From positions 1 through 64,000 of the IMG/VR virus record IMGVR_UViG_3300042368_001013: 64,000 nt of DNA. One strand, written 5' to 3'. Positions 588 to 44,027 of this stretch are shown in pieces. This DNA comes from a virus. A model generated the notes under the pieces. That model was not told the origin of the DNA. It did not search any database and saw only the letters and a program-made list of their open reading frames with translations. The position numbers were made by a program, and so were the translations under genes. Each line of letters begins with the position of its first letter. Within the stretch, counting starts at the first letter, position 1.

Positions 588-631
588 ATTCTACACTATA
601 TACTTGACAAGTCAATATTTTATGTTAGACT
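588..631. promoter_or_regulatory. Back-to-back divergent sigma70-type promoters with abutting -35 boxes (TTGACAAGTCAA)
   Basis: + strand TTGACA(604)-16-TAGACT(626) drives tRNA-Gly; - strand TTGACT(615)-16-TAGAAT(593) drives ORF 364..582. Confidence 0.7.
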
Positions 632-640
632 ATTATTGTT

Positions 641-712
641 GCGAATGTAACTCAGTGGTAGAGTCTCGGTTTTCCAAACCGATGGTCGTGGGTTCGAATC
701 CCATCGTTCGCT
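641..712 (+). tRNA. tRNA-Gly(TCC)
   Basis: Cloverleaf; acceptor GCGAATG/CGTTCGC, anticodon loop TTTCCAA, T-arm GGTTCGAATCC. Confidence 0.95.
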
Positions 713-735
713 TTTGACAATTAAAGACTATAAAA

Positions 736-868
736 CTGTATAGGGATAACTGATACCCTAGCAGTAATCAGAGGTGGGGCGCGGAATACCTTAGAAGAAC
801 GCGCAGGGCTAGTACTATACTTCCCAGACCTTGATCAGGGCTGGAAAAAGGATTCAATGCCCGACTTT
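736..868 (+). ncRNA. Candidate structured RNA between tRNA-Gly and tRNA-Tyr
   Basis: GC-rich non-coding spacer with stems TAGGG/CCCTA (loop CTGAT complementary to downstream ATCAG), GCGCG/CGCGC, CCAG-CCTTGATCAGGG-CTGG and closing AGGTGGGGC/GCCCGACTT. Confidence 0.5.
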
Positions 869-869
869 A

Positions 870-951
870 GCGAGTTTACTCAAGCGGTCAACGAGGGCAG
901 ACTGTAAATCTGCTGGCATTGCCTACGAAGGTTCGAATCCTTCAGCTCGCA
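870..951 (+). tRNA. tRNA-Tyr(GTA)
   Basis: Cloverleaf with long variable arm, anticodon loop CTGTAAA, GGTTCGAATCC. Confidence 0.95.
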
Positions 952-964
952 TTTGGAAAATTAG

Positions 965-1744
965 ATGAATTCAGAAAAAGAATATATTAGTAAATTAAAT
1001 TTACCAGAATATCCAGATATTTTAAAAATAGATTTACCATCTCGTAAAAGAGAATGGATGGATGTCAATAATGGTCACGCATATAAATGCCTTCCTTTAA
1101 ATGTTGCAAATGGATTTGGGTGGAATATATTATGCCCAATTACTTTTGATGCAACATGGAATGAAAACTTAAGACCAGAAAATTCAATAGAATTTAATTT
1201 TTTTCCAGAAGATAATACTTCGACTACAGAATATATTTTGAATCATAAATTAATATCATCCCACTTTGGGAATGGTATAATTACATTTTCTGGAATGAAT
1301 TACATTCTAAGAACTTCAAAAAATAACAATATTTTTGTAAAGGGACCAACAAATTATTTTAAGCATGGAGCGCAAGCTCTTGAAGCTGTAATTGAAACTG
1401 ATTGGATTCCATATAATTTTACTTTAAACTGGAAGATTACAAAACCAAATGAAAAAGTAGAATTTAAAAAAAATGAACCTATTGCAACTTTTTTCCCTAT
1501 TCCAAGAAATTACTTGGAAAATTTTGAGACTAAAGAAGAAAATCTAGAAATTACAGATGATCTTTATTTAGAGCACCGCAAATGGGTTGAGAAAAGAAAT
1601 GAAACACAAAAAGAAAATAAGACACATAATTTTTATACTCGTGGTATAGAAAATATTGATGAAAATAAGTTGTTTGACAATCATCAACGTGCTATAATAG
1701 GATGTCCATTTAAATTTTTTAAGAAAGACAAAACAGATGAGTGA
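965..1744 (+). CDS. DUF6065-like protein
   Basis: REWMD...HAYKCLPL..AN..GW and IETDW.PY.FT.NWK motifs typical of this family, which often neighbours 2OG oxygenases. Confidence 0.7.
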   Translation: MNSEKEYISKLNLPEYPDILKIDLPSRKREWMDVNNGHAYKCLPLNVANGFGWNILCPITFDATWNENLRPENSIEFNFFPEDNTSTTEYILNHKLISSHFGNGIITFSGMNYILRTSKNNNIFVKGPTNYFKHGAQALEAVIETDWIPYNFTLNWKITKPNEKVEFKKNEPIATFFPIPRNYLENFETKEENLEITDDLYLEHRKWVEKRNETQKENKTHNFYTRGIENIDENKLFDNHQRAIIGCPFKFFKKDKTDE

Positions 1745-8853: not shown

Positions 8854-8860
8854 AATTGAA

Positions 8861-9202
8861 TTATACATCAAGAATCACTTTAGGCAAGTATTTATGGCTA
8901 ACATTCTTATAACCAACTGGTTTAGTGCTATTTTCTATATGAGTTATTCTTCTATGGCAATTTGCACACACACATTGACATTTTTTAATTTCATCAAGTA
9001 CTTTGACAATAGTGCTTGACTCCAGAAGTCTTGTGACCTTTGCAACTTTTGTAGAAGGATCTATATGATGCCATTCCAAACAAATGGGATCATTTAGACC
9101 ACAAAGTTCACACTTCTTATCTTTCATAAAATTTGCATACCAAAGTCTTCGTTCAGCTCTTTGCTTACGCTTGTGCAATACATTATTTTTTTTATTTGCC
9201 AT
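8861..9202 (-). CDS. HNH endonuclease (start revised to MANKK)
   Basis: CELCG...LEWHHIDP...CANCHR; free-standing between tRNA genes. Confidence 0.85.
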   Translation of the reverse strand: MANKKNNVLHKRKQRAERRLWYANFMKDKKCELCGLNDPICLEWHHIDPSTKVAKVTRLLESSTIVKVLDEIKKCQCVCANCHRRITHIENSTKPVGYKNVSHKYLPKVILDV

Positions 9203-9278: not shown

Positions 9279-9610
9279 TGTTATTATTTATTACGCCAGT
9301 ATTATACAGTAAAGATAGGCACAGTCAAATATAAATATTGTAGTAGTAAATGAAATTGTTAATTTTTACTTTCTTTGAAGTAAATTATAATTTCTGCAAT
9401 TCCCAAAGCAATAACTGGCAGAAACGTAGCACCAGCAAACCACCAAAATGGTACGGTATGTTCTACCATTAGACTTCACATCCAGTCTTCTTTTTCTTTG
9501 TAAGAAGATACTTTATCATTCCTTCGATCATCCCAAAGATCATCAAAGGAAATATAATCATGAAACAAAGAGTAAGTACAGAAACTCTTTTAAATTCTTC
9601 AATGAAAAGA

Positions 9611-12378: not shown

Positions 12379-12435
12379 GCCCATAGTATAGCACATACCC
12401 AATGCAAGTCAAGCAACAGGATGATAAATAACTTT

Positions 12436-14584: not shown

Positions 14585-14641
14585 TGTAGGTAATTATATA
14601 CCATAATACCAATAAGACAAGAAATTAATAAATATTATACC

Positions 14642-15489: not shown

Positions 15490-15810
15490 GTCCAGTAATC
15501 CCCCCTGATAGTTGTCTGATAGTTGTCCCGTTTCAGAAATTTTTGAAATTTCTTTGTGTGAATCGGGTCCGGTAATATTTTCAAATTTATTTGAAACCTT
15601 GGTGGGGCCGATAACCATAGAACCTGCCAGTCCGATAACCAGCAGTCCGGTAAGCATAGCCCCGATAACCATGAGCGTCCGATAACCCCCTGCCCACCCT
15701 CTCACAATTATTGGACACTTGGGCTGGGGGGTTATCGGTCGCATGAACAGTCCTATAAGTATACACCAGATCTGGGGGGAGTCAAGTACTAGACCACAAG
15801 TCCGATAAGC
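15490..15810. repeat. Cluster of GTCCGATAAC-like repeats and tandem CTGATAGTTGT(C) half-sites
   Basis: Copies at 15608, 15630, 15645, 15661, 15677, 15731 (inverted), 15750 and 15800; CTGATAGTTGT twice at 15505-15527. Confidence 0.8.
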
Positions 15811-15928
15811 TGGCCAGAGCTGAGCTCCTGGATCCAGGAACCCGGTCCAGTGAATTAATTAAATTATTATTATTGTCCCAGAAGCGCTCGACGGCCTCTC
15901 GACAGCTCCAGGTAACGTCCCGTCCAAT

Positions 15929-15983
15929 CTACTATCAGGCCGTCCGAATAAATCAAATTTCCTCTGAGGAAATTTGATAGTAG
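15929..15983. repeat. CTACTATCAG palindrome element, copy 1
   Basis: CTACTATCAG...ATCAAATTTCC-TCTGA-GGAAATTTGAT-AGTAG. Confidence 0.8.
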
Positions 15984-16058
15984 TCCAGGTACACAGCCAC
16001 CCAGGACTGGCTCTCTCCTTCCAGTCCTGGGCGACCATGTATGTCAATAGACTAGATC

Positions 16059-18236
16059 TTACCTGTCCCGGCGATCCCGGAACTTCATGCCCTCCGGGAA
16101 GCAGGGCAGTCCGTAGATCCCGGAGTCCATCTTGCGGATGGGCTGACCCGCCACGATGTCCACATACCGGGTGAGGAACACACGGCTACCTGCCCGCTTG
16201 CCCATCGTCTTGATGAACTGGTTCTTCACCTTGGTGAAGTTACCTCCGGTGGCAATCGCCTCCTCGTCCTTGACGGGCTTCGGGGTCTGAATGAGGAAGT
16301 ACGAATCGTAGCCGGGGAAGGTATCTTCGTGCAGGACAAGGCATCCCTCCTTGAACGCTTCCGCCGCAGCCTTGTACCGCTCCGAATCTCCAACGGTCAG
16401 ACCACCCTTGTAGTGATGGGAGATGGAATCGGCATTCTTCTGCTTCTCCTGTTCGCTCAAGCAGAACTGCTCAAAGCAGCGTTCCGTCAGGATACGAGTG
16501 GGCATCACATACATTCCAACGCATCGGGCGTTCAACTTGGTGCGGAGGGAATTGAGCATGGCGTAGATGACACCATCGGGCAGATTCGTCCTGCCGTTCT
16601 TGTTGTCGATGACGGTGACCGTATCAAGGATCTCGTTCGTCACGGTGAGGGAAGTACCCTCGCCGTACCAGTAGACTCCATCCTCCTTGGAGGTGTTGAT
16701 GTGGTTGGGGCAACCGTCCGTCACGACCATGATGGTCGGAATCTGAATGTTGTTCTCCTGCACCCATCCCGCCATGAACTGGGAAGTGAGGGCAATGCAC
16801 TCCACCGTGGGCGTACCGTTCAGGGTGAGGTAACGGGAAGTGGGGCGGGTCTGCTGCACATAGGTTTCGTAGATGTACGCGCACAGACGCTCACGCTTGG
16901 CCGCATCGTCCTTGGAGGAGGCAATGTTCAGCAGCCTAGCCGTACCGATGTGCATACCCGTGGGGCAGTCACGATTCAAAGCCCGTGCGCCCCATTCACG
17001 GTCGAACTCGTAGGAGAACGCATCGGGATTCTGCTTCCTCCATGCATCACACGCAGCCTGATACTCGGGATCAAGGTTGCCGTAGACATCGGTGTAGCCG
17101 AACACCTCAAATGGGATCTTCGCCTTCTCGCAGAACCACACCAACTGGAGAACCTGAAGGTAGGCGTGGCCGATGGTCGCACCCATGCTGCCGCTGAAGT
17201 CAAGCATGAACACGATGCCGTGGTTCTTGCCGTCCTGCTTGACGATCTTCGACAGGAAGATATCGTCATGGGTGCGGTACTGGTGGAGGCGGTCAAGGTT
17301 CAGCATCCCGGTCTGCTTCGGACGCTCACGGCGGATCTCGTCCGCAGCCTTCTTGCGCTCAAACTGGGCGACCATCTGACGGACGAACGCATCGGACTCG
17401 CGCACGAACTGGCGGTACTCCTCAAGGAGCAGCGGCCTGTTGCTGTTGCCCTCGTAGTCGTTGAGGATGGTTTCCGTGCTGACGATGTGCTTGGACAGAT
17501 CCTTGACTCCGGTGAGAGTGACCACCGCGTCCTGATACTGCGAACCGTCCTTGCGGCGGAAGTCACCGGGGACATTCGTCTTGTCGCCCATGATCTTGTC
17601 CTGCTCCTTCTCACCCTGCTTGCCACCCTTGGCAGCAGCAGCCTCCATGTCCTCGCGCATCTCCTTCATGGAAGGGTGCTTATACAGGAACTTGGCGACC
17701 TCAAACACCTGATCGTAATTGACCACGGCATCCACCATGTCCACGACCTCCTGCTCCGTCCCCTCAAAGGTCATGGGGATGAAGCCGGGAACGCCCCACT
17801 TGAAGTGGATGTTCAGGCGGTTGAGGAACCCGGCCTTCGTGAAGTCCATCTTCTTGAAGCCGAACATATCAATGTCTGCGATCTCCTTGTAGCCAAGGAA
17901 GAAGTCACGGCGAGTGCCGGGGAACTTCTGCTTCATCAACTTCTCAATGCGGACATCTTCGATGATGTTGGCAATGCGAGAGAGCAGCATGGGGTTGTAG
18001 CCGTCTGCCTCCGCAGCCTTCAGCAACTCATAGCCGCGCTCGTAGGGAGTCCACAGAGCGTGGCTGATCTCGTGGGCCACGAGCATGGTCTTGACGGTTT
18101 CGGACACATCCCACATGGGCATGACGAGGTGACGCGACTTCACATCGAACGATGCGGTTTCAGCGTCCTTGGAGAAGGAGAACGAAATGTTCTCGGATGC
18201 GAGAGCCTTGGCGAAGATGGAGAGAGAGGTGTTCAT
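16059..18236 (-). CDS. vWA-domain protein with N-terminal HExxH region (CobT-like partner of the AAA+ ATPase); probably leaderless, start MNTSLS
   Basis: HEISH, EDVRIE, MIDAS DFSGS, GTP and VVTDG motifs; ATG 6 nt below TTGACT-17-TACAAT. Confidence 0.85.
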   Translation of the reverse strand: MNTSLSIFAKALASENISFSFSKDAETASFDVKSRHLVMPMWDVSETVKTMLVAHEISHALWTPYERGYELLKAAEADGYNPMLLSRIANIIEDVRIEKLMKQKFPGTRRDFFLGYKEIADIDMFGFKKMDFTKAGFLNRLNIHFKWGVPGFIPMTFEGTEQEVVDMVDAVVNYDQVFEVAKFLYKHPSMKEMREDMEAAAAKGGKQGEKEQDKIMGDKTNVPGDFRRKDGSQYQDAVVTLTGVKDLSKHIVSTETILNDYEGNSNRPLLLEEYRQFVRESDAFVRQMVAQFERKKAADEIRRERPKQTGMLNLDRLHQYRTHDDIFLSKIVKQDGKNHGIVFMLDFSGSMGATIGHAYLQVLQLVWFCEKAKIPFEVFGYTDVYGNLDPEYQAACDAWRKQNPDAFSYEFDREWGARALNRDCPTGMHIGTARLLNIASSKDDAAKRERLCAYIYETYVQQTRPTSRYLTLNGTPTVECIALTSQFMAGWVQENNIQIPTIMVVTDGCPNHINTSKEDGVYWYGEGTSLTVTNEILDTVTVIDNKNGRTNLPDGVIYAMLNSLRTKLNARCVGMYVMPTRILTERCFEQFCLSEQEKQKNADSISHHYKGGLTVGDSERYKAAAEAFKEGCLVLHEDTFPGYDSYFLIQTPKPVKDEEAIATGGNFTKVKNQFIKTMGKRAGSRVFLTRYVDIVAGQPIRKMDSGIYGLPCFPEGMKFRDRRDR

Positions 18237-18294
18237 GCGTATATTGTAACCGATGTGGGGGGAGAAGTCAACCCACAAACAAAGATTTTTTTGC

Positions 18295-18368
18295 GTCCCA
18301 TAACGTCCGGCTACTATCAGGCTGTCCAATAAAAATCAGAAAGTCCAGACGGACTTTCTGATAGTAGC
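18295..18368. repeat. GTCCCATAAC box plus CTACTATCAG palindrome, copy 2
   Basis: GCTACTATCAG...ATCAGAAAGTCC-AGAC-GGACTTTCTGAT-AGTAGC. Confidence 0.85.
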
Positions 18369-18377
18369 TCACAGATG

Positions 18378-18409
18378 CTGCCTCTCCCCCCTTGCGGGGG
18401 GAGAGGCAT
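18378..18409 (-). terminator. Strong GC hairpin downstream of ORF 18418..18636
   Basis: TGCCTCTCCCCCC/GGGGGGAGAGGCA inverted repeat. Confidence 0.6.
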
Positions 18410-18417
18410 GAACAGCA

Positions 18418-18636
18418 TCAGACTGTGACGGGAGCAATCAGCGAGGTCAGGTTGTAGACCCCCTTGATGTCCGTCTTGCAGTCCTTCAGCACCCAAGTCG
18501 GGATGCCCTTCATGTTGATGGACTGCGCGATGTCAAGCAGGTTGAACTTGTTGAACGCAGCGATGTCAAGGCTGTTGGCCTCTGCGTAGTGCTTGGCTGC
18601 GGCGACGAAACGATTGCGCTTGTTGAGGTATGGCAT
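18418..18636 (-). CDS. Small protein resembling the N-terminal domain of the adjacent AAA+ ATPase
   Basis: KRNRF...IPTWVL...KGVYNL versus KRNF...LPAWLV...RGKYII. Confidence 0.7.
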   Translation of the reverse strand: MPYLNKRNRFVAAAKHYAEANSLDIAAFNKFNLLDIAQSINMKGIPTWVLKDCKTDIKGVYNLTSLIAPVTV

Positions 18637-18658
18637 TTTCTTTTTCTTTCTTTCTTGG

Positions 18659-20005
18659 TTAGGCGTTCATAGCGTACTGGGTGTCGGTGTCGGGGTTGGA
18701 CAACTTATCCAACTGTGCTTTCAATTCTGCAATCTTCTTCTGCTCTGCGGTCAGAGCGTTGACGGGGTTGCTCACCGGGGCATCCTTCATTCCCTCCGGG
18801 ACAGGGAGGATCGTGGGGTCGATCTTCGTGTAGAGGTTGAAGAACGCCTCCTTCGTGGACGCATCGAACCGCGTCAGCGTCAACTTGATGGCCTTCTCCT
18901 TGTCGCCAAAGATGGCGAACGCCTTGCACACTTCCTCCAAGCGGCGGGTGGTGATGATGTCATCCAGTCCGCCCTCCTTGAAGCCCATGCGGATCGTTTC
19001 CGCCCACTTCGTGAGGTACTGGGCGAACTCCTTGTCCTCCTTGCCGTATGCCTTCATCTTGCGGATGATGATACGCGCTTCGATGGTGCGATCCGCGTAG
19101 TCCTGCTCAAACCAGTAGGAGAAGCGGTCAAGGAACGCCTCGTTCATGCAGCGCGTACCCACAAACCGATCAGACTCACCCTTGCCCTTGGTGTTGGCAG
19201 TCGCCACCACATTGAAGCCCACGGCAGGCTTGATGAACATACCGATCTTCTTGATGTAGATGCCCTTGCCCTCAAGCACGGGCTGAAGGCACATCATGCG
19301 CTCCGTCCCAAGGTCGATCTCGTCAAGGAGGAGGATGGAGCCACGCTGCATGGCCTGAACCACGCCACCGAACACGAACTTCGTTTCGCCGTTGACGAGG
19401 CGGAAGCCACCGATGAGGTCATCCTCGTCCGTTTCGGCGGTGATGTTGACGCGAATGCACTCGCGGCCCGTGGAGGCGCAAATCTGCTCCACCATCGTGG
19501 TCTTGCCGTTGCCGGACATACCCGTGATGTAGACGGGAGCGAACTGCTTGGATGCGAGGATGGTGGAGATGTCATCGTGGTGACCCCACGGAACGAAAGT
19601 CTCGTTCTTGGCGGGGACGAGCGAAACATCGGAGGACGGCATGACGAGGTTGTAGGTGTTGCTGTTCATGTTGCTGATTGTATCACAAGTTTCGGAGGAA
19701 GTCAAGGTTTCGGAAGAAGATTCGGAAATATTTTCTTCCACGTTATCGGACTCTGCGGGAGTGTAGTCAAGGACAACCATTTCCGGGATGATGTACTTGC
19801 CACGACCCGCACGGCGGTTCTTGGGCTGCACCAGCCAAGCCGGGAGGACGCTGTAGCACTGCTCGCCAAGGGCATGGGACTGGGTGAGTGCGGCAAGGCA
19901 CTGCTCACGGGTGTAGACGGCTTCCCCGATGGTCTGCGGATTGCCGTACAAGAATTGAAGGTGGTTGAGGAAGTTACGCTTGCGAATGTCGATGTTGCTG
20001 TTCAT
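18659..20005 (-). CDS. cobS: MoxR/CobS-like AAA+ ATPase with extra N-terminal domain; internal shorter isoform predicted from 19669
   Basis: Walker A GMSGNGKT, Walker B LLLDEID, ATANTKG, EAFLDRF and TTRRL motifs. Confidence 0.88.
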   Translation of the reverse strand: MNSNIDIRKRNFLNHLQFLYGNPQTIGEAVYTREQCLAALTQSHALGEQCYSVLPAWLVQPKNRRAGRGKYIIPEMVVLDYTPAESDNVEENISESSSETLTSSETCDTISNMNSNTYNLVMPSSDVSLVPAKNETFVPWGHHDDISTILASKQFAPVYITGMSGNGKTTMVEQICASTGRECIRVNITAETDEDDLIGGFRLVNGETKFVFGGVVQAMQRGSILLLDEIDLGTERMMCLQPVLEGKGIYIKKIGMFIKPAVGFNVVATANTKGKGESDRFVGTRCMNEAFLDRFSYWFEQDYADRTIEARIIIRKMKAYGKEDKEFAQYLTKWAETIRMGFKEGGLDDIITTRRLEEVCKAFAIFGDKEKAIKLTLTRFDASTKEAFFNLYTKIDPTILPVPEGMKDAPVSNPVNALTAEQKKIAELKAQLDKLSNPDTDTQYAMNA

Positions 20006-20065
20006 GTCACAATCTTACCACACAATCTTCCAAAAGTCAATAGGCTAGAATATATTTTTTTCCAG

Positions 20066-20150
20066 GTCCTATAACTTCCCGTCCACTACTATCATAATAA
20101 TATAAACCATCCTCAGAAATTCGCTTAAAGGGCGAATTTCTGATAGTAGC
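20066..20150. repeat. GTCCTATAAC box plus CTACTATCA palindrome, copy 3
   Basis: CTACTATCA...TCAGAAATTCGC-TTAAAGG-GCGAATTTCTGA-TAGTAG. Confidence 0.85.
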
Positions 20151-20202
20151 TCAAAGAACAACCCCCGCTTGCGCGGGGGTTGTGAGGGACTGACCTAGCA
20201 TA

Positions 20203-20448
20203 TTAGCCGGTCGTGTTGTAGTAGTTCTTCTCCGACTTGCACTCGTTCGCCTTGCAGCACTTCTCAAGGGTCACGATGCGCTGCCACATCTTCTCGTTCT
20301 CGCTGTAGAGATCCTTGACCATTTCGTCTTGATGACGAATGATGTTGTTCAACTTCTCGTTCAGTCGAACGCGGAAGTAGGCGATGGCGAAGTAGGCGGC
20401 ACCTGCGAGGGTGATGACGGTAACGAGCGTGTTGAGATCAATATTCAT
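20203..20448 (-). CDS. Small membrane-anchored coiled-coil protein, probably leaderless
   Basis: N-terminal TM segment; ATG 6 nt below TTGACA-16-TATACT. Confidence 0.7.
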   Translation of the reverse strand: MNIDLNTLVTVITLAGAAYFAIAYFRVRLNEKLNNIIRHQDEMVKDLYSENEKMWQRIVTLEKCCKANECKSEKNYYNTTG

Positions 20449-20498
20449 GTCTTTAGTATACCTCGGGGTTTGGGGTTGTCAAGCAACGAAACAGAAAA

Positions 20499-20574
20499 TA
20501 GAAGGGGCGGGAGTTGCACCCACATATTCACGCTTATAAGGCATGCGCTCTAACTACGATTCAGCCACCCTTCT
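20499..20574 (-). tRNA. tRNA-Ile(TAT) with atypical T-loop
   Basis: Acceptor AGAAGGG/CCCTTCT, anticodon loop CTTATAA, T-arm GGGTGCAACTCC. Confidence 0.8.
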
Positions 20575-20575
20575 G

Positions 20576-20658
20576 TGGTGGAGCCTTCATACGGATGCTC
20601 CGGTGTCCGTGCAACCGTAGGTTGCCTCTATACGGTTATTTTAGTTACCGCCAAACTC
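20576..20658 (-). ncRNA. Candidate tRNA-mimic RNA ending in ACCA
   Basis: GAGTTT/AGGCTC closing stem, three internal hairpins, 3' CCACCA immediately before tRNA-Ile. Confidence 0.5.
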
Positions 20659-20708
20659 ATTAATAATATAACTCATTGAGGTACATTGTACCACCTCTTT
20701 CTTGTTTG

Positions 20709-20855
20709 TCAAGTCTGGGGGAAAGGAATCACGACCTGAAGCATGCAGTCGTTGCACAGTTCGAATGCTTCCCAATCTTCACCATCGGGATAGTCAATGC
20801 GAACCTTGGTCAGTTCTTCCTCAAACTCTTCGTTGCATCCGCAGCAAGTGTTCAT
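20709..20855 (-). CDS. 48-aa CxxC...CxxC zinc-finger-like protein
   Basis: MNTCCGCNEEF...LCNDCM; GAGGA ribosome-binding site upstream. Confidence 0.6.
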   Translation of the reverse strand: MNTCCGCNEEFEEELTKVRIDYPDGEDWEAFELCNDCMLQVVIPFPQT

Positions 20856-20875
20856 GGGTTCCTCTCGTGGTTAGG

Positions 20876-20949
20876 CGTTCCCGGTTGGATTCGAACCAAC
20901 GACCTGCCGCTTAGAAGGCGGCTGCTCTATCCTGCTGGGCTACGGGAAC
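20876..20949 (-). tRNA. tRNA-Arg(TCT)
   Basis: Cloverleaf, anticodon loop CTTCTAA. Confidence 0.95.
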
Positions 20950-20952
20950 AAA

Positions 20953-21042
20953 TGGAAGGGGTACTTACGGCCTTTGCGGAAAGAATATGTTTTTCTTCTA
21001 ACATATTCCGTGACCCGACTATATCCGACTATTCGCCCTTCC
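20953..21042 (-). ncRNA. Candidate structured RNA with tRNA-like acceptor stem
   Basis: GGAAGGG/CCCTTCC-A closing stem and internal GAATATGTT/AACATATTC helix, between tRNA-Leu and tRNA-Arg. Confidence 0.55.
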
Positions 21043-21075
21043 GTGTTGGGTGCCTTGAAGAAGGACACCCGGTAA

Positions 21076-21148
21076 TAGCGCGAGTGGGAGTCGAACCCAC
21101 ACTTTGTTGATTTTGAGTCAACTGTCTCTGCCTTTGGACTACCGCGCC
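21076..21148 (-). tRNA. tRNA-Leu(CAA) lacking the long variable arm
   Basis: Anticodon loop CTCAAAA, 5-nt variable region. Confidence 0.85.
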
Positions 21149-21160
21149 ATGATCCCCATT

Positions 21161-21433
21161 CTAGAACAGATCGGGGGTGTTGTCAAGTTTGAAATCTGAA
21201 TTTATTTTTTCATAAAATTCAGAGTTGTGTGGGACGATCTTCTCATGAAGCCTGCCCACGTTGATGTGTTCGCCTACGTCATCCTTCGCATCGTAGTAGG
21301 CATCTATGAGTTCTTTTGGAGGATTGGAGTTTCCTTCCAACCAGTACTCCATCACCTGCTCCATCACGATTGCGAGTCGGTCGTATGCACGGCATGCGCC
21401 AGTAAGAAGTTCGATTGTTTCTTCGTTTGTCAT
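21161..21433 (-). CDS. Hypothetical protein (start MTNEET)
   Basis: ORF between tRNA-Lys and tRNA-Leu. Confidence 0.65.
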   Translation of the reverse strand: MTNEETIELLTGACRAYDRLAIVMEQVMEYWLEGNSNPPKELIDAYYDAKDDVGEHINVGRLHEKIVPHNSEFYEKINSDFKLDNTPDLF

Positions 21434-21435
21434 AA

Positions 21436-22785: not shown

Positions 22786-22787
22786 AA

Positions 22788-23191: not shown

Positions 23192-23581
23192 TTAGATCGG
23201 AAAGTTGACCTTGCCAAACTCGGCCAAGTGTCGGCGCAGGCACTCCTTCACGATGTCCTGCAGCGGCAGGACGGGGATGCCCGTATCACGGAGGGAGGTC
23301 TCCGATGCCTTGGCGTAGTAGGACACAGATCCGTCACGGACGCTTTCCACGAATTCTTCCCAGTTCAGACCCAGTTCCGTGACGATCATGAGGACGAGGG
23401 TCTTCTCGGCATCCGTGAACCATCCGAACGGCAGGGACACGGTGATCTCGCACAGGGCAAGGGCCGCGTTGACCTCGGCGGGGTTGTCCTTGAACTCCGG
23501 CGTGTTGTTGGCGGTCAGGACGAGGGAAACAACGAGGTCATCAATCTTGGCGAGGCGGACGGGCTTGGTGGTGTTCTTCAT
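23192..23581 (-). CDS. Hypothetical early protein
   Basis: AAGGA ribosome-binding site, GC3-rich; hairpin downstream at 23146-23175. Confidence 0.7.
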   Translation of the reverse strand: MKNTTKPVRLAKIDDLVVSLVLTANNTPEFKDNPAEVNAALALCEITVSLPFGWFTDAEKTLVLMIVTELGLNWEEFVESVRDGSVSYYAKASETSLRDTGIPVLPLQDIVKECLRRHLAEFGKVNFPI

Positions 23582-23599
23582 GGTGGTGTTCCTTGTGGG

Positions 23600-23848
23600 T
23601 TAGGCGTTGAGGCACTTCTTCATGCGTTCGTCTGCTCGGCGGGACATATCCGCATCCAACTCACTCGCCAACTTTGCTTCTTCCTTCATGCGGCGGAGGA
23701 GGTACTGGAGCGCCCGCAGGTCGTGTTCGTTCGTGTTTTCTGCGAGGTTGCCCAAGTACCAAAGCGAGGAGGTGACATAACCGTAGGCGTAGGCGTGGTC
23801 GTGGGTGACGGAGGCGGGGATCTTGACGGTGGTGGTGCTGTTCTTCAT
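23600..23848 (-). CDS. Hypothetical early protein, probably leaderless (MKNSTTT)
   Basis: ATG 6 nt below TTTACT-17-TACAAT. Confidence 0.75.
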   Translation of the reverse strand: MKNSTTTVKIPASVTHDHAYAYGYVTSSLWYLGNLAENTNEHDLRALQYLLRRMKEEAKLASELDADMSRRADERMKKCLNA

Positions 23849-23927
23849 GTCGGTATTGTAACAGGTCGGGGTGCGAAAGTAAAGGGGGACAGAAAGAATA
23901 TTTCGCTTTCTGTCCCCCCACAGGGGT

Positions 23928-24176
23928 TCAGGTGAGCGGGATCCCGTACTTTGCCTCAAGGGCTTCCTTCAGTCCGGCGAGAACCTTCTCGCGGTTGCCC
24001 TTCAGACCGTATTCCTTCTTGGCGAGGGCGTAGCAGGAGACGCCACGGGTGAGGCGCATCGGGGTGCCACGGGCAGCGGTCTTGATTTCGAACTTCAGAC
24101 CGTTGTAGATCATCAGTTCACGGTAGGCGCAGATCTGTGCGGGAGTGTTCAGGACGATGTCGTTGGTGGTGGTCAT
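23928..24176 (-). CDS. Hypothetical early protein, probably leaderless (MTTTND)
   Basis: ATG 6 nt below TTGCAT-17-TACAAT. Confidence 0.75.
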   Translation of the reverse strand: MTTTNDIVLNTPAQICAYRELMIYNGLKFEIKTAARGTPMRLTRGVSCYALAKKEYGLKGNREKVLAGLKEALEAKYGIPLT

Positions 24177-24234
24177 GCGTAGATTGTATCACACCTTGCC
24201 GGAAAATGCAACCACAAAGAAAGAAATATTTGGA

Positions 24235-24300
24235 GTCCCATAACGTCCAGGTCGTCCAGACAACTATCAGCCAGCCCTCGGAGGGCTGGCTGATAGTAGC
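24235..24300. repeat. GTCCCATAAC box plus ACTATCAG palindrome, copy 5
   Basis: GACAACTATCAGCCAGCCCTC-G-GAGGGCTGGCTGATAGTAGC. Confidence 0.85.
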
Positions 24301-24437
24301 TCAGCCCCCTCTAGCCATTTCCCTTTTCCCCTCCCTCCTTGCCTTCCGGGGGTCCCGGCTCTTCTTTCCCCAGGTCTTGGGGCGAAGCCGGATTCCCTCC
24401 CGGAAGGCATCGTGGACGAATTTACCGGGACGGTGGT

Positions 24438-24983
24438 TCATTCGGCCTTCCCCCGAATGATGATCCACAACAGGGCTTGCATCGTGGCCGCGTCCATGTT
24501 GTAGGCCGATGCCACTTCGCGGACGGCGTTAGCAATGATCCGATATTCCGTCTTATTCGGAGCATCCTTGCCAAGTCCTGCGGCACGGCACATCCACACA
24601 TCCACAACCACCGCGTCACGGTCTCCGGCGATGGCACGGGCGAACGCATTCGTCTTGGGGCCACGCAGTCCGTCGAATCCTTCGCGGACGCATCGGTCTG
24701 CAGCCTCCACGTGGGAACGCAGTCCCTTCGGCGTGATACCCTGCGCGTACTCGTGCGCCTTACGCTTATTGTGCGCCCACGTGACGCGGGGCGAGAACGC
24801 GGAGACAACGCTGCACGAAATTTCCATGCTCCAATCGGGGCGAATGAAGCACAGACGACGGGCGAAGTCTCCGGCTTCAACGTACCACGCATCGGCGGAC
24901 GCATGATCGAAGAGGGTAGCGGTGGAGAGGAGGGAACGGAAACGGTTCGAAACGGTGGTGGTGGTGGTGGTGGTGCTGTTCAT
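24438..24983 (-). CDS. Helix-hairpin-helix glycosylase-like phage protein, probably leaderless (MNSTTTTTTT)
   Basis: SAFSP, GPKT.AF, VVVDVWM and QALLW motifs. Confidence 0.65.
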   Translation of the reverse strand: MNSTTTTTTTVSNRFRSLLSTATLFDHASADAWYVEAGDFARRLCFIRPDWSMEISCSVVSAFSPRVTWAHNKRKAHEYAQGITPKGLRSHVEAADRCVREGFDGLRGPKTNAFARAIAGDRDAVVVDVWMCRAAGLGKDAPNKTEYRIIANAVREVASAYNMDAATMQALLWIIIRGKAE

Positions 24984-25051
24984 GCGTACATTGTACCATG
25001 TCATGCCGTCCATGTCAATAGGTGGCGCCGAAATATTATAATATTCATTCC

Positions 25052-25115
25052 GTCCCATAACCATACCGTCCTCGACAACTATCAGCCAGCCCTCCGAGGG
25101 CTGGCTGATAGTAGC
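25052..25115. repeat. GTCCCATAAC box plus ACTATCAG palindrome, copy 6
   Basis: Palindrome identical to copy 5 except for the central base. Confidence 0.85.
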
Positions 25116-25189
25116 CCATATAAACAACCTAGCCCCGAACGAATCGGGGCAGGGACGAATCCTCTTCGGTTTGTACGAGCACCACCTCG

Positions 25190-25387
25190 TTATTTCGGTT
25201 CGGCTCGCTTGAGGATTACGGGCGTGATGTAGGCCATTGCCCACATGAGGCACACGCTCGGGATCATTGCCCAGTCGAAGCGATGGGCCGTCGCCTCCGT
25301 GATAGCGACCGAGGAGATGAGAGTGGCGAGAGCCACGAAGAGGAAGGTGATGACGTGTCGGACGGTGGTGGTGATGGTGGTGTTCAT
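25190..25387 (-). CDS. Small two-TM membrane protein, probably leaderless (MNTTITTT)
   Basis: ATG 6 nt below TTGACT-17-TACAAT. Confidence 0.7.
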   Translation of the reverse strand: MNTTITTTVRHVITFLFVALATLISSVAITEATAHRFDWAMIPSVCLMWAMAYITPVILKRAEPK

Positions 25388-25418
25388 GGGTGTATTGTAC
25401 CAGTTAGTGGTGCGGAAG

Positions 25419-25829
25419 TCAAGCCCCCGGAAACGAAAGAACCTGATACTTTGCGCCGGGCTTACGCTTGGACTGCGCGGCCCCGCTGTCGCGGCTGTCG
25501 ATGTGGTTCGCCGCAGCAAGGAAGCCGTAGGCAATGGCGCGCATCTCTGCGGCGTTGAGGGCCATGCTAACCTTCTCGTCACCGATGCCCAAGATGTTCG
25601 CGGTGGAGGAGCAGACAGCCGATGCGTAGACACGCACGGAGTACGGGCCCACCGGGATGACGAACGCAGCACCACGGTCACCTTCAAAGGTGACGCGGGT
25701 GTAGTTGCTGCGGTTGGCGATCTTGCATTCGCCAATGGTGACATTGCGTTCCGCGGTGCGGAGGAAGTCAGGGGTGCGAGAGGAGGAGTGGACGATAGAA
25801 ACGGCGTTGGAGAAAGTGGTGCAGGTCAT
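25419..25829 (-). CDS. Hypothetical early protein, probably leaderless (MTCTT)
   Basis: ATG 6 nt below TTGACA-17-TACAAT. Confidence 0.7.
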   Translation of the reverse strand: MTCTTFSNAVSIVHSSSRTPDFLRTAERNVTIGECKIANRSNYTRVTFEGDRGAAFVIPVGPYSVRVYASAVCSSTANILGIGDEKVSMALNAAEMRAIAYGFLAAANHIDSRDSGAAQSKRKPGAKYQVLSFPGA

Positions 25830-25935
25830 GCGTAGATTGTACCATGAGCAGGTGCGAATGTCAAGGGGTGGAAGAAAGAAATTTATTTCTTTGATTGGGC
25901 TTGACATGGAAGGCGGAGTATGGTATCATGCGGGC

Positions 25936-26205
25936 ATGTGCAACACCACCACCGACCCGAACGAATTCGAACACTTCCCCTGCGACTGCCACCGCCCGGA
26001 GTTCGCCTACACGGACTCACTGTGCCCGATGTGCGAGGAGCAGCGGGAGCGCGAGCAGGAGGCCAAGCGCGAGGCGCGCAAGCAGCACGATGATGAGTAC
26101 GCAGCAGATAACTCTGCGTTCATCGACGCGGCTAGCCGGATGAGCCCCGAAGACTGGGACGCGGACAACGACTGGCTAGCATCAGCCGGTTGGGGTGAGA
26201 TGTAA
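25936..26205 (+). CDS. Acidic Cys-containing early protein, probably leaderless (MCNTTT)
   Basis: ATG 6 nt below TTGACA-17-TATCAT; C-terminus LASAGWGEM. Confidence 0.75.
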   Translation: MCNTTTDPNEFEHFPCDCHRPEFAYTDSLCPMCEEQREREQEAKREARKQHDDEYAADNSAFIDAASRMSPEDWDADNDWLASAGWGEM

Positions 26206-26276
26206 GCCCCGAAGAAATATTCAAACTTCCAACGCCCACCCTTGACATGGGGTGGGCGTTGTGTTACAATATACGC

Positions 26277-26498
26277 ATGAGCACCACTCACAACAACCCG
26301 GCTGAAACCTCCCGCCCCTGCTGCTGCGTTTGCGGCGCTGATCACGTGGACGATAACGTTCGCGCTACCGAGCACGGTACGCTGTGCGTCATGTGCGTGG
26401 ACGATGTGCGCGCAGACATGGCATGGGACGCGCACGAGCGCGCCATGGGCTACGAAGGCGACGACGACCCCTACTGGGAGCAGCATGCGGAGGGCTAA
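26277..26498 (+). CDS. Zinc-finger-like acidic early protein, probably leaderless (MSTTHNN)
   Basis: CxxC...CxxC; ATG 6 nt below TTGACA-17-TACAAT. Confidence 0.75.
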   Translation: MSTTHNNPAETSRPCCCVCGADHVDDNVRATEHGTLCVMCVDDVRADMAWDAHERAMGYEGDDDPYWEQHAEG

Positions 26499-26511
26499 CC
26501 TCCCAGCCCCC

Positions 26512-26547
26512 AGATGCCCACCCCGAAGGGGTGGGCATCTTTGTTTT
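26512..26547 (+). terminator. Intrinsic terminator
   Basis: AGATGCCCACCCC-GAA-GGGGTGGGCATCT then TTGTTTT. Confidence 0.8.
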
Positions 26548-26819
26548 CAGAAATAATATTATTCTATTTGACTGATGGGTCACCCGCTATCGAGTTTGGC
26601 CTGTCCGAGTAGTGATTTGGGTCCCTTCTGGCGGGGTGTTATCGGACGGGCTAGCCCCTCCCTCTCAAATTTTCTTAAATTTTCTCAAATATTCTTGATG
26701 GTATAAAAATTTTTTGGCCACCCCCCACGACCCCAAACCTTAAAATACGTGGGATGCCATAAAAAAATTTGGGCCCCCGAAAGGACCCAAAAGTTTATCT
26801 AATCTAATGAGAGTGGAAG

Positions 26820-27176
26820 TCAAACCCAAACAGGTTTACGAGGCCAAGAGTCAGGTTTTTTCTTTCTAGGATCACCATCTGGTGCGTCAGGCCACCATCC
26901 ATCCCAACCTTTAGGGGGTGGACCATCTTTAAACCAAACAGGGAAGTCATACAAAGGGTAAGTAGGAAAATAAGGCCACTTTGGTAAGTTATCGGGATTT
27001 GGTGGATCTATACGAGTAGGATTATTCTTATAAAATGGTGCATAACCGTCAACTTGAACTGGCCATTCTGAGGGTGTGTCAGTTTCATTCAATAATTTTA
27101 ATTCAGATGAAAGCCTATCAACTTTATTCTGAAGTTGCTCTGATAGGTTCTTGTAATAGTTTGTTAGGTAATCCAT
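26820..27176 (-). CDS. YYKNL-leader family, Pro/Trp-rich cargo
   Basis: Leader nearly identical to 12436..12984; TAAATA 5 nt upstream. Confidence 0.8.
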   Translation of the reverse strand: MDYLTNYYKNLSEQLQNKVDRLSSELKLLNETDTPSEWPVQVDGYAPFYKNNPTRIDPPNPDNLPKWPYFPTYPLYDFPVWFKDGPPPKGWDGWWPDAPDGDPRKKKPDSWPRKPVWV

Positions 27177-35573: not shown

Positions 35574-35633
35574 ATGTTTCCTTTACAGGTTTTTATTATA
35601 ACAGGTATTTTAGCACTAGCAAGTAACAATATT

Positions 35634-37760: not shown

Positions 37761-37799
37761 GACCCACAATAATGACACATATTGGGAACAGGTCAATAA

Positions 37800-41015: not shown

Positions 41016-41106
41016 AGGGCCTCCTTCAGTCAGAATTATTTAGGGAATTACTTGACAGTGAAATTGTATGTAGTATAGTATGGCAACTTCTTAAGAAAGG
41101 AAATTT

Positions 41107-41343
41107 ATGGAAATTACTAATGTTGACCGTCCGACCAAGATTCAAAGAGTTTTTGATTACATGCGTAAGGGTACTCCCCTAACCGCAGGCGAGGCTCGCA
41201 AACGTTTCCGTGTTGGAAACATGCGTGCAACTATGCACGATCTTCGTGAGGCATTTGATCGTTTTGAAATGAACTACACTGTGGTCCGTGAGCTTCGTAA
41301 TGGTCGTTCTTATTACCGCGTATCTCGTAATCGAGTACGCTAA
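41107..41343 (+). CDS. Small winged-helix-like DNA-binding protein
   Basis: LT..EA..RF.V.N.RA...DLR...YYR pattern; TTGACA-16-TATAGT promoter and AAAGGA site. Confidence 0.65.
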   Translation: MEITNVDRPTKIQRVFDYMRKGTPLTAGEARKRFRVGNMRATMHDLREAFDRFEMNYTVVRELRNGRSYYRVSRNRVR

Positions 41344-41364
41344 GTTAATAAGAAGGTCTGTGTG

Positions 41365-41394
41365 AAAAACCCCGCCGTTTTGGCGGGGTTTTTT
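41365..41394. terminator. Bidirectional intrinsic terminator
   Basis: AAAAACCCCGCC-GTTTT-GGCGGGGTTTTTT between convergent genes. Confidence 0.85.
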
Positions 41395-42697
41395 AATTTA
41401 CGTTTATTTGTAGATTTATTGTAGTTGGACCTACAAATTCAATATAAATTTTTCTTGAACTTGTCTGAGTTTTAGTATAAATTAACCCAGATTGGTCAAA
41501 TCCAGGGACTCCCATTAAATAAATTCCCGAAGTTAATGGTACTGTCTTAGCAGAATCAACATAATAATTTACATTGAATCCTTTTAATGAGGGGTGACTG
41601 AAGTCTAATTTGAATCCCGTAGTGATATTAAAATTCAATTCACTTGTTACTTGAAGAGTATCTGCACCTTCTGCATTTGTTTTTAACGCATAGACATATG
41701 ATGGTGTATATGTTCCTTCAAAATCATAACTTCCAGCCAAAATTTCTTCAATAAAGACAAAAACTGATCCATCATATGGTAGAGCTTTATCTGATGTTGC
41801 TGCATTGAATCCATTGTCAGTTAATCTTGAACAATATAAACAAGGTATCCATTGAGCGCTATAAGTACGACTTTCATATTGTGCTCTTAAAAATGCTTGT
41901 AACTGATTTTGATTTTCAAAACATTCAATTTGATTACCATCTGCATCAAAAACAACATAGCACCCAAGTTGTTTTCTTGTTTTGGATAAAATTTCTGGAT
42001 TTGCATTTCCACGTAAAAAATGTGTAAAAGTAATGCCGGATGTGGAAAGATTTTGATTTGTTAATGCTATGTCAGTATATACTAATTCTCTATTATCTTT
42101 TAATTTTACAACAGAATTGATTTTAATTTTTCCAGCATTTGTTGTTGAACCAGATATCTCAATATATTCTTCTTTTCCAAATTGAGAGCCAACAATACCA
42201 AAATTTACAAAAGACTTACTTTGGTTTATAGTTAAATTATTTTCAATATAATTCTGAGCAGTAGCTCCACCACTATAACCACTAGTATATTGTGGGTAGT
42301 CAATAAAATTACTAGAATTGTAAAATTTATAATTTGCTAAACTTGTAAACCCAGATTGTATTCCACCAATTATAATTTTATCATTACCAGTTAAACTTTC
42401 TAAAGAAAAAACTCCACTTACATCCACAGAATAATCATAATTGGGATCATAATAATTTGCATTATTGAGTGCAAATGTAGTTCCAACTGGCGTATTTTTA
42501 AAAACTTTTTGTAAATAAGTAAGATCGGAAATATTATAAGATGCTGTATAGTCTATAAAACAACTGGTTCCTATAACAGAAACATTTGGTTTAGAATTTA
42601 CATATCCTTGTAAAAATACTGGATCAAAAGTTGAACCATAAATTTTTACGCCATAATTGATTAAATTCTTACAAGCATTAAGAGCATATAATGACAT
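41393..42697 (-). CDS. Putative virion structural protein
   Basis: Beta-rich Ser/Thr/Tyr/Gly composition, in a late operon. Confidence 0.6.
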   Translation of the reverse strand: MSLYALNACKNLINYGVKIYGSTFDPVFLQGYVNSKPNVSVIGTSCFIDYTASYNISDLTYLQKVFKNTPVGTTFALNNANYYDPNYDYSVDVSGVFSLESLTGNDKIIIGGIQSGFTSLANYKFYNSSNFIDYPQYTSGYSGGATAQNYIENNLTINQSKSFVNFGIVGSQFGKEEYIEISGSTTNAGKIKINSVVKLKDNRELVYTDIALTNQNLSTSGITFTHFLRGNANPEILSKTRKQLGCYVVFDADGNQIECFENQNQLQAFLRAQYESRTYSAQWIPCLYCSRLTDNGFNAATSDKALPYDGSVFVFIEEILAGSYDFEGTYTPSYVYALKTNAEGADTLQVTSELNFNITTGFKLDFSHPSLKGFNVNYYVDSAKTVPLTSGIYLMGVPGFDQSGLIYTKTQTSSRKIYIEFVGPTTINLQINVN

Positions 42698-42698
42698 A

Positions 42699-43646
42699 TT
42701 ACGAAGCCATGTAGGTTATAATTTGTGTTCCTGTATTTGATACTGCATACAACTTATTTGTATTTTGTATATCAAGGAAAACATTTTCTCCTGGATCTAG
42801 GGCATATCCATATGAGGAACCAACTAGTCCAGATGTGTTACCAACATAGATAAAATCAGTATTTGTAGAAAGTGCTTTTATGTTTATACCAGTCAAACAT
42901 GTAAAGCCACCTGAATCCATTTGTTGTACTGCAGCAGATGTTGGGGACACTCTACCAGTTTTGAATGTTGTTGGTCTACCTACTCCAAGAGCGGTAAAAT
43001 CTGTACGCAATCCTACTATTTGTCCATAAATTGCGGTTATACCATTTGTTATATCATTATTGGCAATACCTACAGTGTTACCAACAGTTACTGCTACGGC
43101 AGTTGCACCAGAAATTCCGGCAACCAAAACAGTCGAAGGAATTGTGGCTGTAAATGTTGCTCCAGTTATGGCAACCTTCAGAGCATCACCACTGGTTCCA
43201 ATTGACCAGCCAGTTGCACCGACCAATTTAACAAAGATTGAAGTTGCGCCAGATGGGCCATAAGTAGAAATTGAATCAACGGTTGTATATAATCTACCAC
43301 CAGTAATTTCAATTTGACTTCCTGTAAAAGTTTTTACGTATACAGGTGATCCAGTAGAACCTGTTGCAATAATAGTTCCGCTTATGGGAAGAGGATAACC
43401 ACCACCAGTACCCTGTACGGTAACAAGCCCGTTGAATCCTGTAATAGAAGCGGTGAGACCACCTGCAACTGTTACTGGGAATGGATTTGCAGAGGAAGTT
43501 GTAGTTGCTACCCCCGTAATACCATGTGCCAATTTAAAGATTTGGAAGTGGGCAGTTGTTCCAGAATATTGAGCTACATCTGTAGCTACAGCAGCAGTTA
43601 ATCCAGCTGTTTCAATAATAATGTTTGGGTCTGTATCTGAGGCCAT
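42699..43646 (-). CDS. Putative virion structural / fibre-like protein
   Basis: Gly/Thr/Ala-rich with G.T repeats; IKA...NT..IYVG...GY.L.PGE C-terminal domain. Confidence 0.65.
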   Translation of the reverse strand: MASDTDPNIIIETAGLTAAVATDVAQYSGTTAHFQIFKLAHGITGVATTTSSANPFPVTVAGGLTASITGFNGLVTVQGTGGGYPLPISGTIIATGSTGSPVYVKTFTGSQIEITGGRLYTTVDSISTYGPSGATSIFVKLVGATGWSIGTSGDALKVAITGATFTATIPSTVLVAGISGATAVAVTVGNTVGIANNDITNGITAIYGQIVGLRTDFTALGVGRPTTFKTGRVSPTSAAVQQMDSGGFTCLTGINIKALSTNTDFIYVGNTSGLVGSSYGYALDPGENVFLDIQNTNKLYAVSNTGTQIITYMAS

Positions 43647-43734
43647 TTGATATCCTATAAATAGTTCTAGAATATTTAGAAGAGTAAAATGATTGCTTTT
43701 ATTTGATTATAGTATATTATAGTGTGGAGAAAAT

Positions 43735-43968
43735 ATGTATATAGACGATTCAGCTAAAGAAAAATTTTCTGTTAAAGTTTTACAGAGAGTATCTAAAACA
43801 AAGTTATCTTTTATGGAATGTGTTTTGGAACTCAGTGGAGAAATGGGATTAGATCCATCTGCCGCAGGAAAACTTTTAACTAAACCTCTTATTGAAAAAA
43901 TTGAACAAGAGGGTAGAAAGTTAAATATCCTAAAAAGTAAAAAAAGTCCAAGATTGCCAGTTGACTGA
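43735..43968 (+). CDS. g33: Late transcription coactivator gp33
   Basis: F...V...SFMECVL...KLL.KPL.EKI..E...LN.L; directly upstream of gp32. Confidence 0.8.
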   Translation: MYIDDSAKEKFSVKVLQRVSKTKLSFMECVLELSGEMGLDPSAAGKLLTKPLIEKIEQEGRKLNILKSKKSPRLPVD

Positions 43969-44027
43969 CTCAATTGGAACGTTATAATTAAAATAGAAAG
44001 GCCGAGGTAGATCCTCGGGTAATTAAT

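Follow-up and report, generated by a model that had tools for sequence, protein, structure and literature searches.

Sigma-70-type promoters of a GC-rich island and of the AT-rich backbone differ by 1 bp in spacer length across a clade of uncultured T4-type phages

Middle promoters of bacteriophage T4 carry a MotA box, centered near -30, that replaces the -35 hexamer, and their use involves appropriation of sigma by AsiA. T4 early promoters combine an UP element, a -35 hexamer, a TGn motif, and a -10 hexamer and are known as "uber" promoters (Hinton 2010, PMC2988021), and T4-type phages also contain promoter-early stem-loop (PeSL) cassettes (Arbiol 2010, PMC2839356; Comeau 2014, PMC4122927). 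In Escherichia coli, 16-nt spacers are found in the rRNA P1 and P2 promoters and in most tRNA promoters, show special open-complex behavior, and are kinetically distinct from 17-nt spacers (Forquet 2022, PMC9303308). Here, we analyzed the sigma-70-type promoters of an uncultured aquatic T4-type phage represented by IMG/VR virus record IMGVR_UViG_3300042368_001013, a 91.8-kb viral contig (completeness, ~50% by CheckV) whose first 64 kb form the window under study. The contig encodes a T4-type portal, large terminase, gp32, UvsY, and a gp55-like late sigma; its portal shares 48% identity with the Melnitz and marine cyanophage portals, and megablast searches with the backbone and the island against GenBank phages returned no nucleotide match. 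Within the AT-rich backbone of the window lies a GC-rich island that contains a CobS/CobT-like gene pair, four tRNA genes, and ~15 small genes with a GC content at third codon positions of 0.62 to 0.83 (Table 1). The island promoters mostly have 17-bp spacers, whereas those of the backbone have 16-bp spacers, and this split is real and conserved across a large uncultured clade.

A preliminary description of the window, made from its letters alone, had listed promoters of both kinds. Rereading them from the sequence gave a 17-bp spacer for 14/14 of the island promoters, 16 bp for the two sites named there as exceptions within the island (those before 20448 and before the tRNA-Ile unit), and 16 bp for 12/12 sites outside the island, among which the hexamers are weak before 8853, 14584, and 35573 (-35 4/6), guaC (-10), and g33. 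Fisher's exact test on this list gave p = 6e-6. For an unbiased count, the whole 91.8-kb contig was scanned for exact TTGACW followed by TAnnnT (at least 4/6), with spacers of 13 to 21 bp serving as internal controls. The island yielded 12 promoters with 17 bp, 2 with 16 bp, and 0 at every other spacing. The backbone yielded 9 with 16 bp and 2 with 17 bp against a control mean of 3.9 (p = 0.017), a modest signal for a single contig because AT-rich DNA produces many chance -10 matches. Both compartments are enriched for sigma-70-type hexamers at the preferred spacing over the control spacings, and the promoters sit 5' of genes or tRNAs on the coding strand. Beyond the window, the promoters at 71241 (-), 71252 (+), and 77323 (+) each have 16 bp, so the spacing rule predicted from the window holds past its end. 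The list of the preliminary description was therefore borne out in full by rereading, and in the contig-wide histogram the two spacings are not evenly mixed: the island peaks at 17 bp and the backbone at 16 bp alone.

We next turn to the relatives of this phage. A search with the CobT-like protein led to 20 viral contigs (52 to 99% identity), and the GC-rich island stands beside AT-rich DNA in 20/20 of these CobT-like loci and in 10/10 relatives that were fetched whole. An assembly chimera or a recent foreign insert was ruled out because all CobT-retrieved contigs, 20 independent viral contigs, carry the same island next to the CobT-like gene and next to AT-rich DNA. The clade is abundant, with 380 g32 loci in one scan of viral contigs, and the literature yielded no description of its GC island or of its promoter spacing. 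For the comparison we used 11 contigs (G000 to G010), 10 of which are relatives fetched in full; the contigs are 28 to 76% complete. Loci also carry L labels, of which L016 equals G001:C1:1-10982, L005 equals G005, L129 equals G006, and L110 equals G002.

Pooled over the 11 contigs, the unfiltered backbone scan gave 116 promoters with 16 bp and 28 with 17 bp (control mean, 27). With the gene-start filter, these counts were 68 and 6, and the control spacings (14, 15, and 19 to 21 bp) gave 1 to 5; the 21 sites with 18 bp and the 11 with 13 bp are partly alternative -10 readings of 16-bp sites. The pooled islands gave 121 promoters with 17 bp and 33 with 16 bp before filtering and 57 and 18 afterward, and 13 of the latter 18 came from G005 and G007. 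Taken contig by contig, the split is clear-cut in G000, G002, G003, G006, G008, and G009, and island promoters of the TTGACW type are too scarce in G001, G004, and G010 for a judgment. The g32 promoter has a 16-bp spacer in 63 of 77 relatives and a 17-bp spacer in 11, with many unrelated spacer sequences. Mean pairwise identity of the spacers is 0.35 to 0.40 versus 0.25 to 0.29 for shuffles, i.e., their sequences have diverged while their length has been kept. By this measure of sequence conservation, the spacer length of each promoter class is shown to be kept by selection. Recent duplication as the origin of the uniform 17 bp was rejected, as the island spacers are too diverged.

The same scan applied to T4, HTVC008M, Melnitz, and S-PM2 gave one peak, at 17 bp, with 16 bp not in excess. 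Since these AT-rich cultured phages peak at 17 bp, the result validates the scan and excludes an effect of AT richness; it also indicates that the 16-bp backbone class is derived and specific to the clade. Melnitz, HTVC008M, and S-PM2 share with the present phage the same hexamers and a TTGACT-type g32 promoter but differ in having a single 17-bp peak that includes g32 (17 bp in S-PM2 and Melnitz) and no 16-bp class.

The two classes also differ in architecture. With few exceptions, island promoters have their ATG exactly 6 nt past the -10 hexamer, and because the predicted start site is the A of this ATG, the island mRNAs should be leaderless. The 16-bp backbone promoters before 582, 8853, and 12378 share this 6-nt layout. 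Island promoters have G at -14 in 89% and T at -15 in 63% of cases, and their upstream A/T tract (56 to 65%) is embedded in a region of 57% GC. The hexamers are common to both classes, TTGACW being kept with either spacing, and a logo of the 16-bp class revealed no further conserved motif past the two hexamers and a weak TG signal. Discriminators are AT-rich in the backbone class and GC-rich in the 17-bp island class. Five island promoters lie downstream of a strong hairpin with stop codons for both directions in its arms; the five folds have energies of -24 to -36 kcal/mol with z-scores of -4 to -6.8, inverted stop-codon boxes are paired at six sites, and the cassettes are ordered as hairpin, A/T-rich tract, and promoter.

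In joining an A/T tract, a near-consensus -35, TGn, and a good -10, and in heading one small early-type gene each, the island promoters resemble T4 early "uber" promoters, which also have 17-bp spacers in the present scan. They differ from them in the leaderless ATG 6 nt past the -10, in the GC-rich island that they occupy, and in coexisting with a 16-bp backbone class. They also resemble PeSLs in that a strong hairpin stands right before an early promoter, in that such units recur among the small genes of a plastic region, and in that close relatives with the same flanking genes differ in promoter modules. When the contig is compared with G001, promoter cores differ beside genes that are 92 to 98% identical, and some island genes have no orthologue in the relatives. 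Unlike in PeSLs, the spacer sequences are not homogenized within this genome. We know of no description of PeSLs in which spacer length differs from that in the rest of the genome. As a separate observation, many island cassettes of two relatives (G006, 400 to 9300, and G002, 81300 to 89400, in contig coordinates) have tandem pairs of 17-bp promoters at a distance of ~75 nt. After the upstream member of the pair comes a conserved non-ATG CTCGGTGG-like sequence and after the downstream member a leaderless ATG, so the former may give rise to a short RNA or to an isoform with a leader.

Conserved 16-bp backbone promoters, present in several contigs, head g32, uvsY and a helicase, DNA polymerase, dUTPase, and a guaC-like dehydrogenase (with a clear 16-bp promoter at the orthologues in G003 and G004), as well as genes for an HNH endonuclease, a small winged-helix protein, and a glycosyltransferase cluster. 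The tRNA-Gly/Tyr pair, tRNA-Pro, the tRNA-Ile unit, and small leaderless early-type genes also stand behind 16-bp promoters. The assignment of the 16-bp class to middle genes in the preliminary description thus fits g32, uvsY-helicase, DNA polymerase, dUTPase, and guaC, and the class takes in the tRNAs and leaderless genes as well. Its observation that no MotA box is visible was correct: both classes keep TTGACW. The 16-bp class is like T4 middle promoters in being a second class for replication and recombination genes, and a relative described below has a box in the -35 position; it is unlike them in keeping a normal -35 with no box. The tRNA promoters with 16 bp are reminiscent of the E. coli 16-nt class, except that the backbone promoters lack a GC-rich discriminator and the island tRNA-Leu and tRNA-Lys have 17 bp.

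We also searched for genes that could shift promoter use. Neither this contig nor the relatives searched gave a match to sigma-70 region 4, AsiA, or the MotA C-terminal domain; the gp55-like late sigma was all that turned up. PF09010 (searched in G000 to G009) and PF09158 (searched in G000, G001, G002, G004, and G008) gave no match at E <= 1 in these contigs, which are 28 to 76% complete.

In contrast to the backbone class, the spacer length of orthologous island promoters is labile, although their leaderless layout is constant. Island orthologues have 17 bp in this contig and in L001, L003, L009, L010, L011, L012, and L015 and mostly 16 bp in L004, L005, L013, L017, and L007/L018 (promoters of the CobT-like gene, both CobS starts, p71, p79, and p181). 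Orthologues of the CobT-like promoter have 16, 17, or 18 bp, the long-CobS promoter has 16 bp in L004, L005, L007, L017, and L018, and the promoter before 20448 has 16 bp in L003, L010, and L016 and 17 bp in L009, L011, and L012. On a CobT tree, 16-bp and 17-bp lineages are interleaved. At the internal CobS promoter, the -35 of L005 is one nucleotide closer than in this phage through substitutions, with no indel, and the protein remains aligned. G001 has gone further: 11 of its island promoters have a conserved ~19-nt box (core ACACACTCC) replacing the -35, along with TGTGn and a -10 of good quality. The 9-nt box core has eight exact copies in G001, all of them inside the island, and the backbone promoters of G001 still have TTGACW and 16 bp. 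Between this contig and G001, the island proteins (and guaC) are 92 to 98% identical, versus 71 to 84% for portal, terminase, g32, and uvsY, and because the island proteins are far more alike than the core proteins, the island has evidently been exchanged between diverged backbones. It is a module that moves between backbones, with promoters retuned lineage by lineage while the backbone class stays fixed.

The promoters of the window are collected in Table 1. Taken alone, the g33 candidate is not above chance in AT-rich DNA.

Table 1. Positions of the GC-rich island and of promoters in the window
Feature	Spacer	Positions	Strand	Remarks
GC-rich island		15800..26900	.	55-59% GC vs backbone ~33%
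Island promoter	17 bp	18243..18271	-	CobT-like gene, ATG 18236; TTGACT/TACAAT, ATG 6 nt on
Island promoter	17 bp	19677..19705	-	Internal CobS start, ATG 19669, within longer CobS frame
Island promoter	17 bp	20012..20040	-	Long CobS start, ATG 20005; TTGACT/TAAGAT + TGn
Island promoter	17 bp	21158..21186	-	Before tRNA-Leu; TTGACA/TAGAAT
Island promoter	17 bp	21517..21545	-	Before tRNA-Lys; 12/12 consensus positions
Island promoter	17 bp	22125..22153	-	Leaderless 71-aa gene, ATG 22118
Island promoter	17 bp	22675..22703	-	Leaderless 79-aa gene, ATG 22668; upstream hairpin cassette, z = -5.6
Island promoter	17 bp	23855..23883	-	Leaderless 82-aa gene, ATG 23848; weaker -35 TTTACT
Island promoter	17 bp	24183..24211	-	Leaderless 82-aa gene, ATG 24176; -35 TTGCAT; upstream hairpin cassette, z = -5.0
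Island promoter	17 bp	24990..25018	-	Leaderless 181-aa gene, ATG 24983; upstream hairpin cassette, z = -6.8
Island promoter	17 bp	25394..25422	-	Leaderless 65-aa gene, ATG 25387
Island promoter	17 bp	25836..25864	-	Leaderless 136-aa gene, ATG 25829; diverges from promoter at 25901
Island promoter	17 bp	25901..25929	+	Leaderless 89-aa gene, ATG 25936
Island promoter	17 bp	26242..26270	+	Leaderless 73-aa gene, ATG 26277
Island exception	16 bp	20455..20482	-	Leaderless 81-aa gene, ATG 20448
Island exception	16 bp	20685..20712	-	Before tRNA-Ile unit; 16 bp kept in G001
Island-edge promoter	16 bp	15758..15785	-	106-aa gene, ATG 15744, 13 nt past -10; 16 bp in 8/11 relatives
Backbone promoter	16 bp	604..631	+	Before tRNA-Gly + tRNA-Tyr
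Backbone promoter	16 bp	588..615	-	Leaderless 72-aa gene, ATG 582; overlaps divergent promoter at 604
Backbone promoter	16 bp	8860..8887	-	Leaderless 54-aa gene, ATG 8853; -35 TTGCCT; 16 bp in 10/11 relatives
Backbone promoter	16 bp	9301..9328	-	Before tRNA-Pro
Backbone promoter	16 bp	12385..12412	-	Leaderless 88-aa gene, ATG 12378
Backbone promoter	16 bp	14593..14620	-	179-aa ferredoxin-like gene, ATG 14584; -35 TTGTCT; 16 bp also in 3/3 relatives having the gene
Backbone promoter	16 bp	35595..35622	-	105-aa gene starting 35573; weak -35 TTGCTA + TGn
Weak candidate	16 bp	37769..37796	-	Before guaC-like gene; poor -10
Backbone promoter	16 bp	41052..41079	+	78-aa winged-helix gene; ribosome-binding site in leader; six contigs, this one among them, have 16 bp
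Weak candidate	16 bp	43693..43720	+	Putative g33, ATG 43735; TTGCTT/TATTAT
Backbone promoter	16 bp	43961..43988	+	Before g32, ATG 44028

Several further features of the contig were recorded. The CobS-like gene (18659 to 20005, minus strand) has two in-frame leaderless starts (20005 and 19669) with one promoter each, and since this two-start, two-promoter arrangement is kept in relatives, two CobS isoforms are likely. Between the g32 promoter and its start codon, at 44000 to 44019 (+), lies a hairpin that is conserved in 77 relatives. Its arms covary (GGCCGAGG/CCTCGG and GGCCAAGG/CCTTGG), and because both arms change together, the hairpin is suggested to be a translational operator similar to the one in T4 gene 32. 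A T4 late-promoter-like TATAAATA occurs at 43656 to 43663 (+), ~70 nt 5' of the putative g33 start, and the motif is also found 5' of g32 in Melnitz and HTVC008M. A second, weaker GC-raised patch (45 to 55% GC) lies at 10300 to 12300, outside the main island. The tRNA-rich left arm encodes a 679-aa RCC1-repeat protein at 4941 to 6980 (+) (Pfam E = 7.5e-65). At 2324 to 2602 (+) there is a circularly permuted two-piece tmRNA gene (Rfam RF04321, 78.6 bits; ARAGORN tag ANELAMAA); two-piece phage tmRNAs are known in Melnitz and pelagimyophages (PMC9004378).

As an explanation of the split we tentatively favor two tiers of promoters of the host-sigma type, each with a selected geometry of its own and probably with its own kinetics. 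The island tier has the A/T tract, near-consensus -35, 17-bp spacer, TGn, TAcAAT, and 6 nt to the ATG, with about one cassette for each small gene and frequently a strong hairpin ahead of it, and is the counterpart of T4 early "uber" promoters and PeSL cassettes. The backbone tier consists of plain TTGACW/TATAMT promoters with a 16-bp spacer, serving operons for replication, recombination, and nucleotide metabolism, tRNAs, and some leaderless genes. One holoenzyme would presumably read both tiers, and the 1-bp difference would alter intrinsic kinetics, be it strength, open-complex stability, or the response to supercoiling or to nucleoside triphosphates and guanosine tetraphosphate (NTP/ppGpp). 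The island would then be expressed in an immediate burst and the backbone genes in a weaker or delayed-early manner, with no dedicated switch factor. Spacing is in this sense a tier-typical, tunable parameter and not a binary code, and nothing shows that transcription is switched by spacing alone.

Several observations count against the two-tier explanation. Two sharp, non-overlapping optima in one genome are unexpected with one holoenzyme, and promoter strength, timing, and start sites are all inferred from sequence. The spacing of the G005 island is reversed (16 bp, 12; 17 bp, 3) and that of the G007 island is mixed (16 bp, 6; 17 bp, 7); because the G005 island is nearly all 16 bp, the tiers can share one spacing. 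The state of the island clusters by genome (permutation p = 1.5e-4, ignoring phylogeny), and the coding-compatible shift of the -35 within CobS looks like lineage-specific selection from something in trans, which pure kinetics leaves unexplained. A factor gene may have been missed because the contigs are incomplete. Finally, a search of bacterial assemblies for the host gave just two uninformative matches, one a binned contig of 1.8 kb and the other a contig from a distant phage.

It is also possible, if somewhat doubtful, that the difference reflects history only. The island would be a separately evolving, horizontally exchanged module whose promoters descend from 17-bp cassettes, the ancestral T4-like state, while the backbone settled at 16 bp and stabilizing selection acted on each promoter, leaving the 1-bp difference without regulatory meaning. 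The movement of the island between backbones seen with G001 and its PeSL-like hairpin-promoter cassettes would follow naturally, as would the genome-specific flavor of the promoters (a -35 variant, a shared spacer, or a box) and the apparent ability of orthologous island promoters to work at 16 or 17 bp. The interleaving of 16-bp and 17-bp lineages on the CobT tree, and with it the lability of the island, is likewise explained. What history does not readily supply is the backbone: non-paralogous promoters are uniformly 16 bp in 11 contigs versus 17 bp in cultured relatives, so directional selection for 16 bp is needed. Moreover, the island spacers are too diverged to be recent copies, and the split follows functional lines.

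The preliminary description had proposed that promoter geometry switches middle transcription, through a phage factor that remodels RNA polymerase/sigma or through DNA topology. In this model, which we regard as unlikely, a factor that the phage encodes or injects, or altered topology of the DNA during infection, would move RNA polymerase from the 17-bp to the 16-bp geometry, and spacing would time the replication (middle) genes in a phage that lacks MotA and AsiA. Part of that proposal stands, in that there are two compartment-segregated promoter populations, with sharp spacing optima in one genome, and g32, uvsY, DNA polymerase, dUTPase, and guaC belong to the 16-bp class. The constancy of backbone spacing across the clade, set against an island that shifts by lineage, would fit two states of the machinery, and the ~19-nt box in the -35 place of G001 suggests that box-reading factors exist in the clade. 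However, spacer length is not an invariant label, given the 16-bp island of G005 and the box of G001, and no remodeling factor or extra sigma was found: sigma region 4, AsiA, and a MotA-like gene were looked for in 10 contigs without success. A remodeled region 4 is not indicated either, because both classes keep the same -35 hexamer. Also at odds with a switch are the tRNAs and small leaderless early-type genes at 16 bp, the two island promoters at 16 bp, and a published supercoiling model that does not fit 16-nt spacers in a simple way (PMC9303308). A more specific form, in which spacer length is a cis code, strikes us as improbable too. Here, 17-bp "uber" promoters would be read at once by naive host RNA polymerase and the strictly 16-bp backbone ones efficiently only after a clade-conserved phage function or a topological change had altered the preferred angle between -35 and -10, and the island shifts (17 to 16 bp, or the box in G001) would record coevolution with host or factor.

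Still more doubtful is the idea that the host RNA polymerase prefers 16 bp, such that the backbone has adapted while an island reimported from phages of other hosts lags at 17 bp, with G005 having caught up. The backbone has indeed moved to 16 bp from the 17 bp of cultured relatives, G005 has strong island promoters at 16 bp, and the island is exchanged between backbones, but early promoters should adapt fastest, yet most islands hold 17 bp despite saturated spacer divergence; in addition, the search of bacterial assemblies, with its two uninformative matches, gave no host to support this idea. Compensation by twist, in which AT-rich spacers are wound tighter so that 16 AT-rich bp give the same hexamer angle as 17 GC-rich bp, tracks local GC in most contigs but is hardly credible, being contradicted by the GC-rich 16-bp spacers of the G005 island and by the exclusive use of 17 bp in AT-rich T4, HTVC008M, Melnitz, and S-PM2 (33 to 38% GC).

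These findings bear on how replication genes are timed in those T4-like phages that lack MotA and AsiA (cyanophages, pelagiphages, and their freshwater relatives). A clean, conserved 1-bp difference between early-island and replication-gene promoters, absent in cultured relatives, offers a simple and testable handle on this timing, and natural variants are at hand for comparison in G005, with everything at 16 bp, and in G001, with a box for the -35. If the difference should prove neutral, it would still stand as a clear example of promoters evolving by compartment inside a single phage genome.

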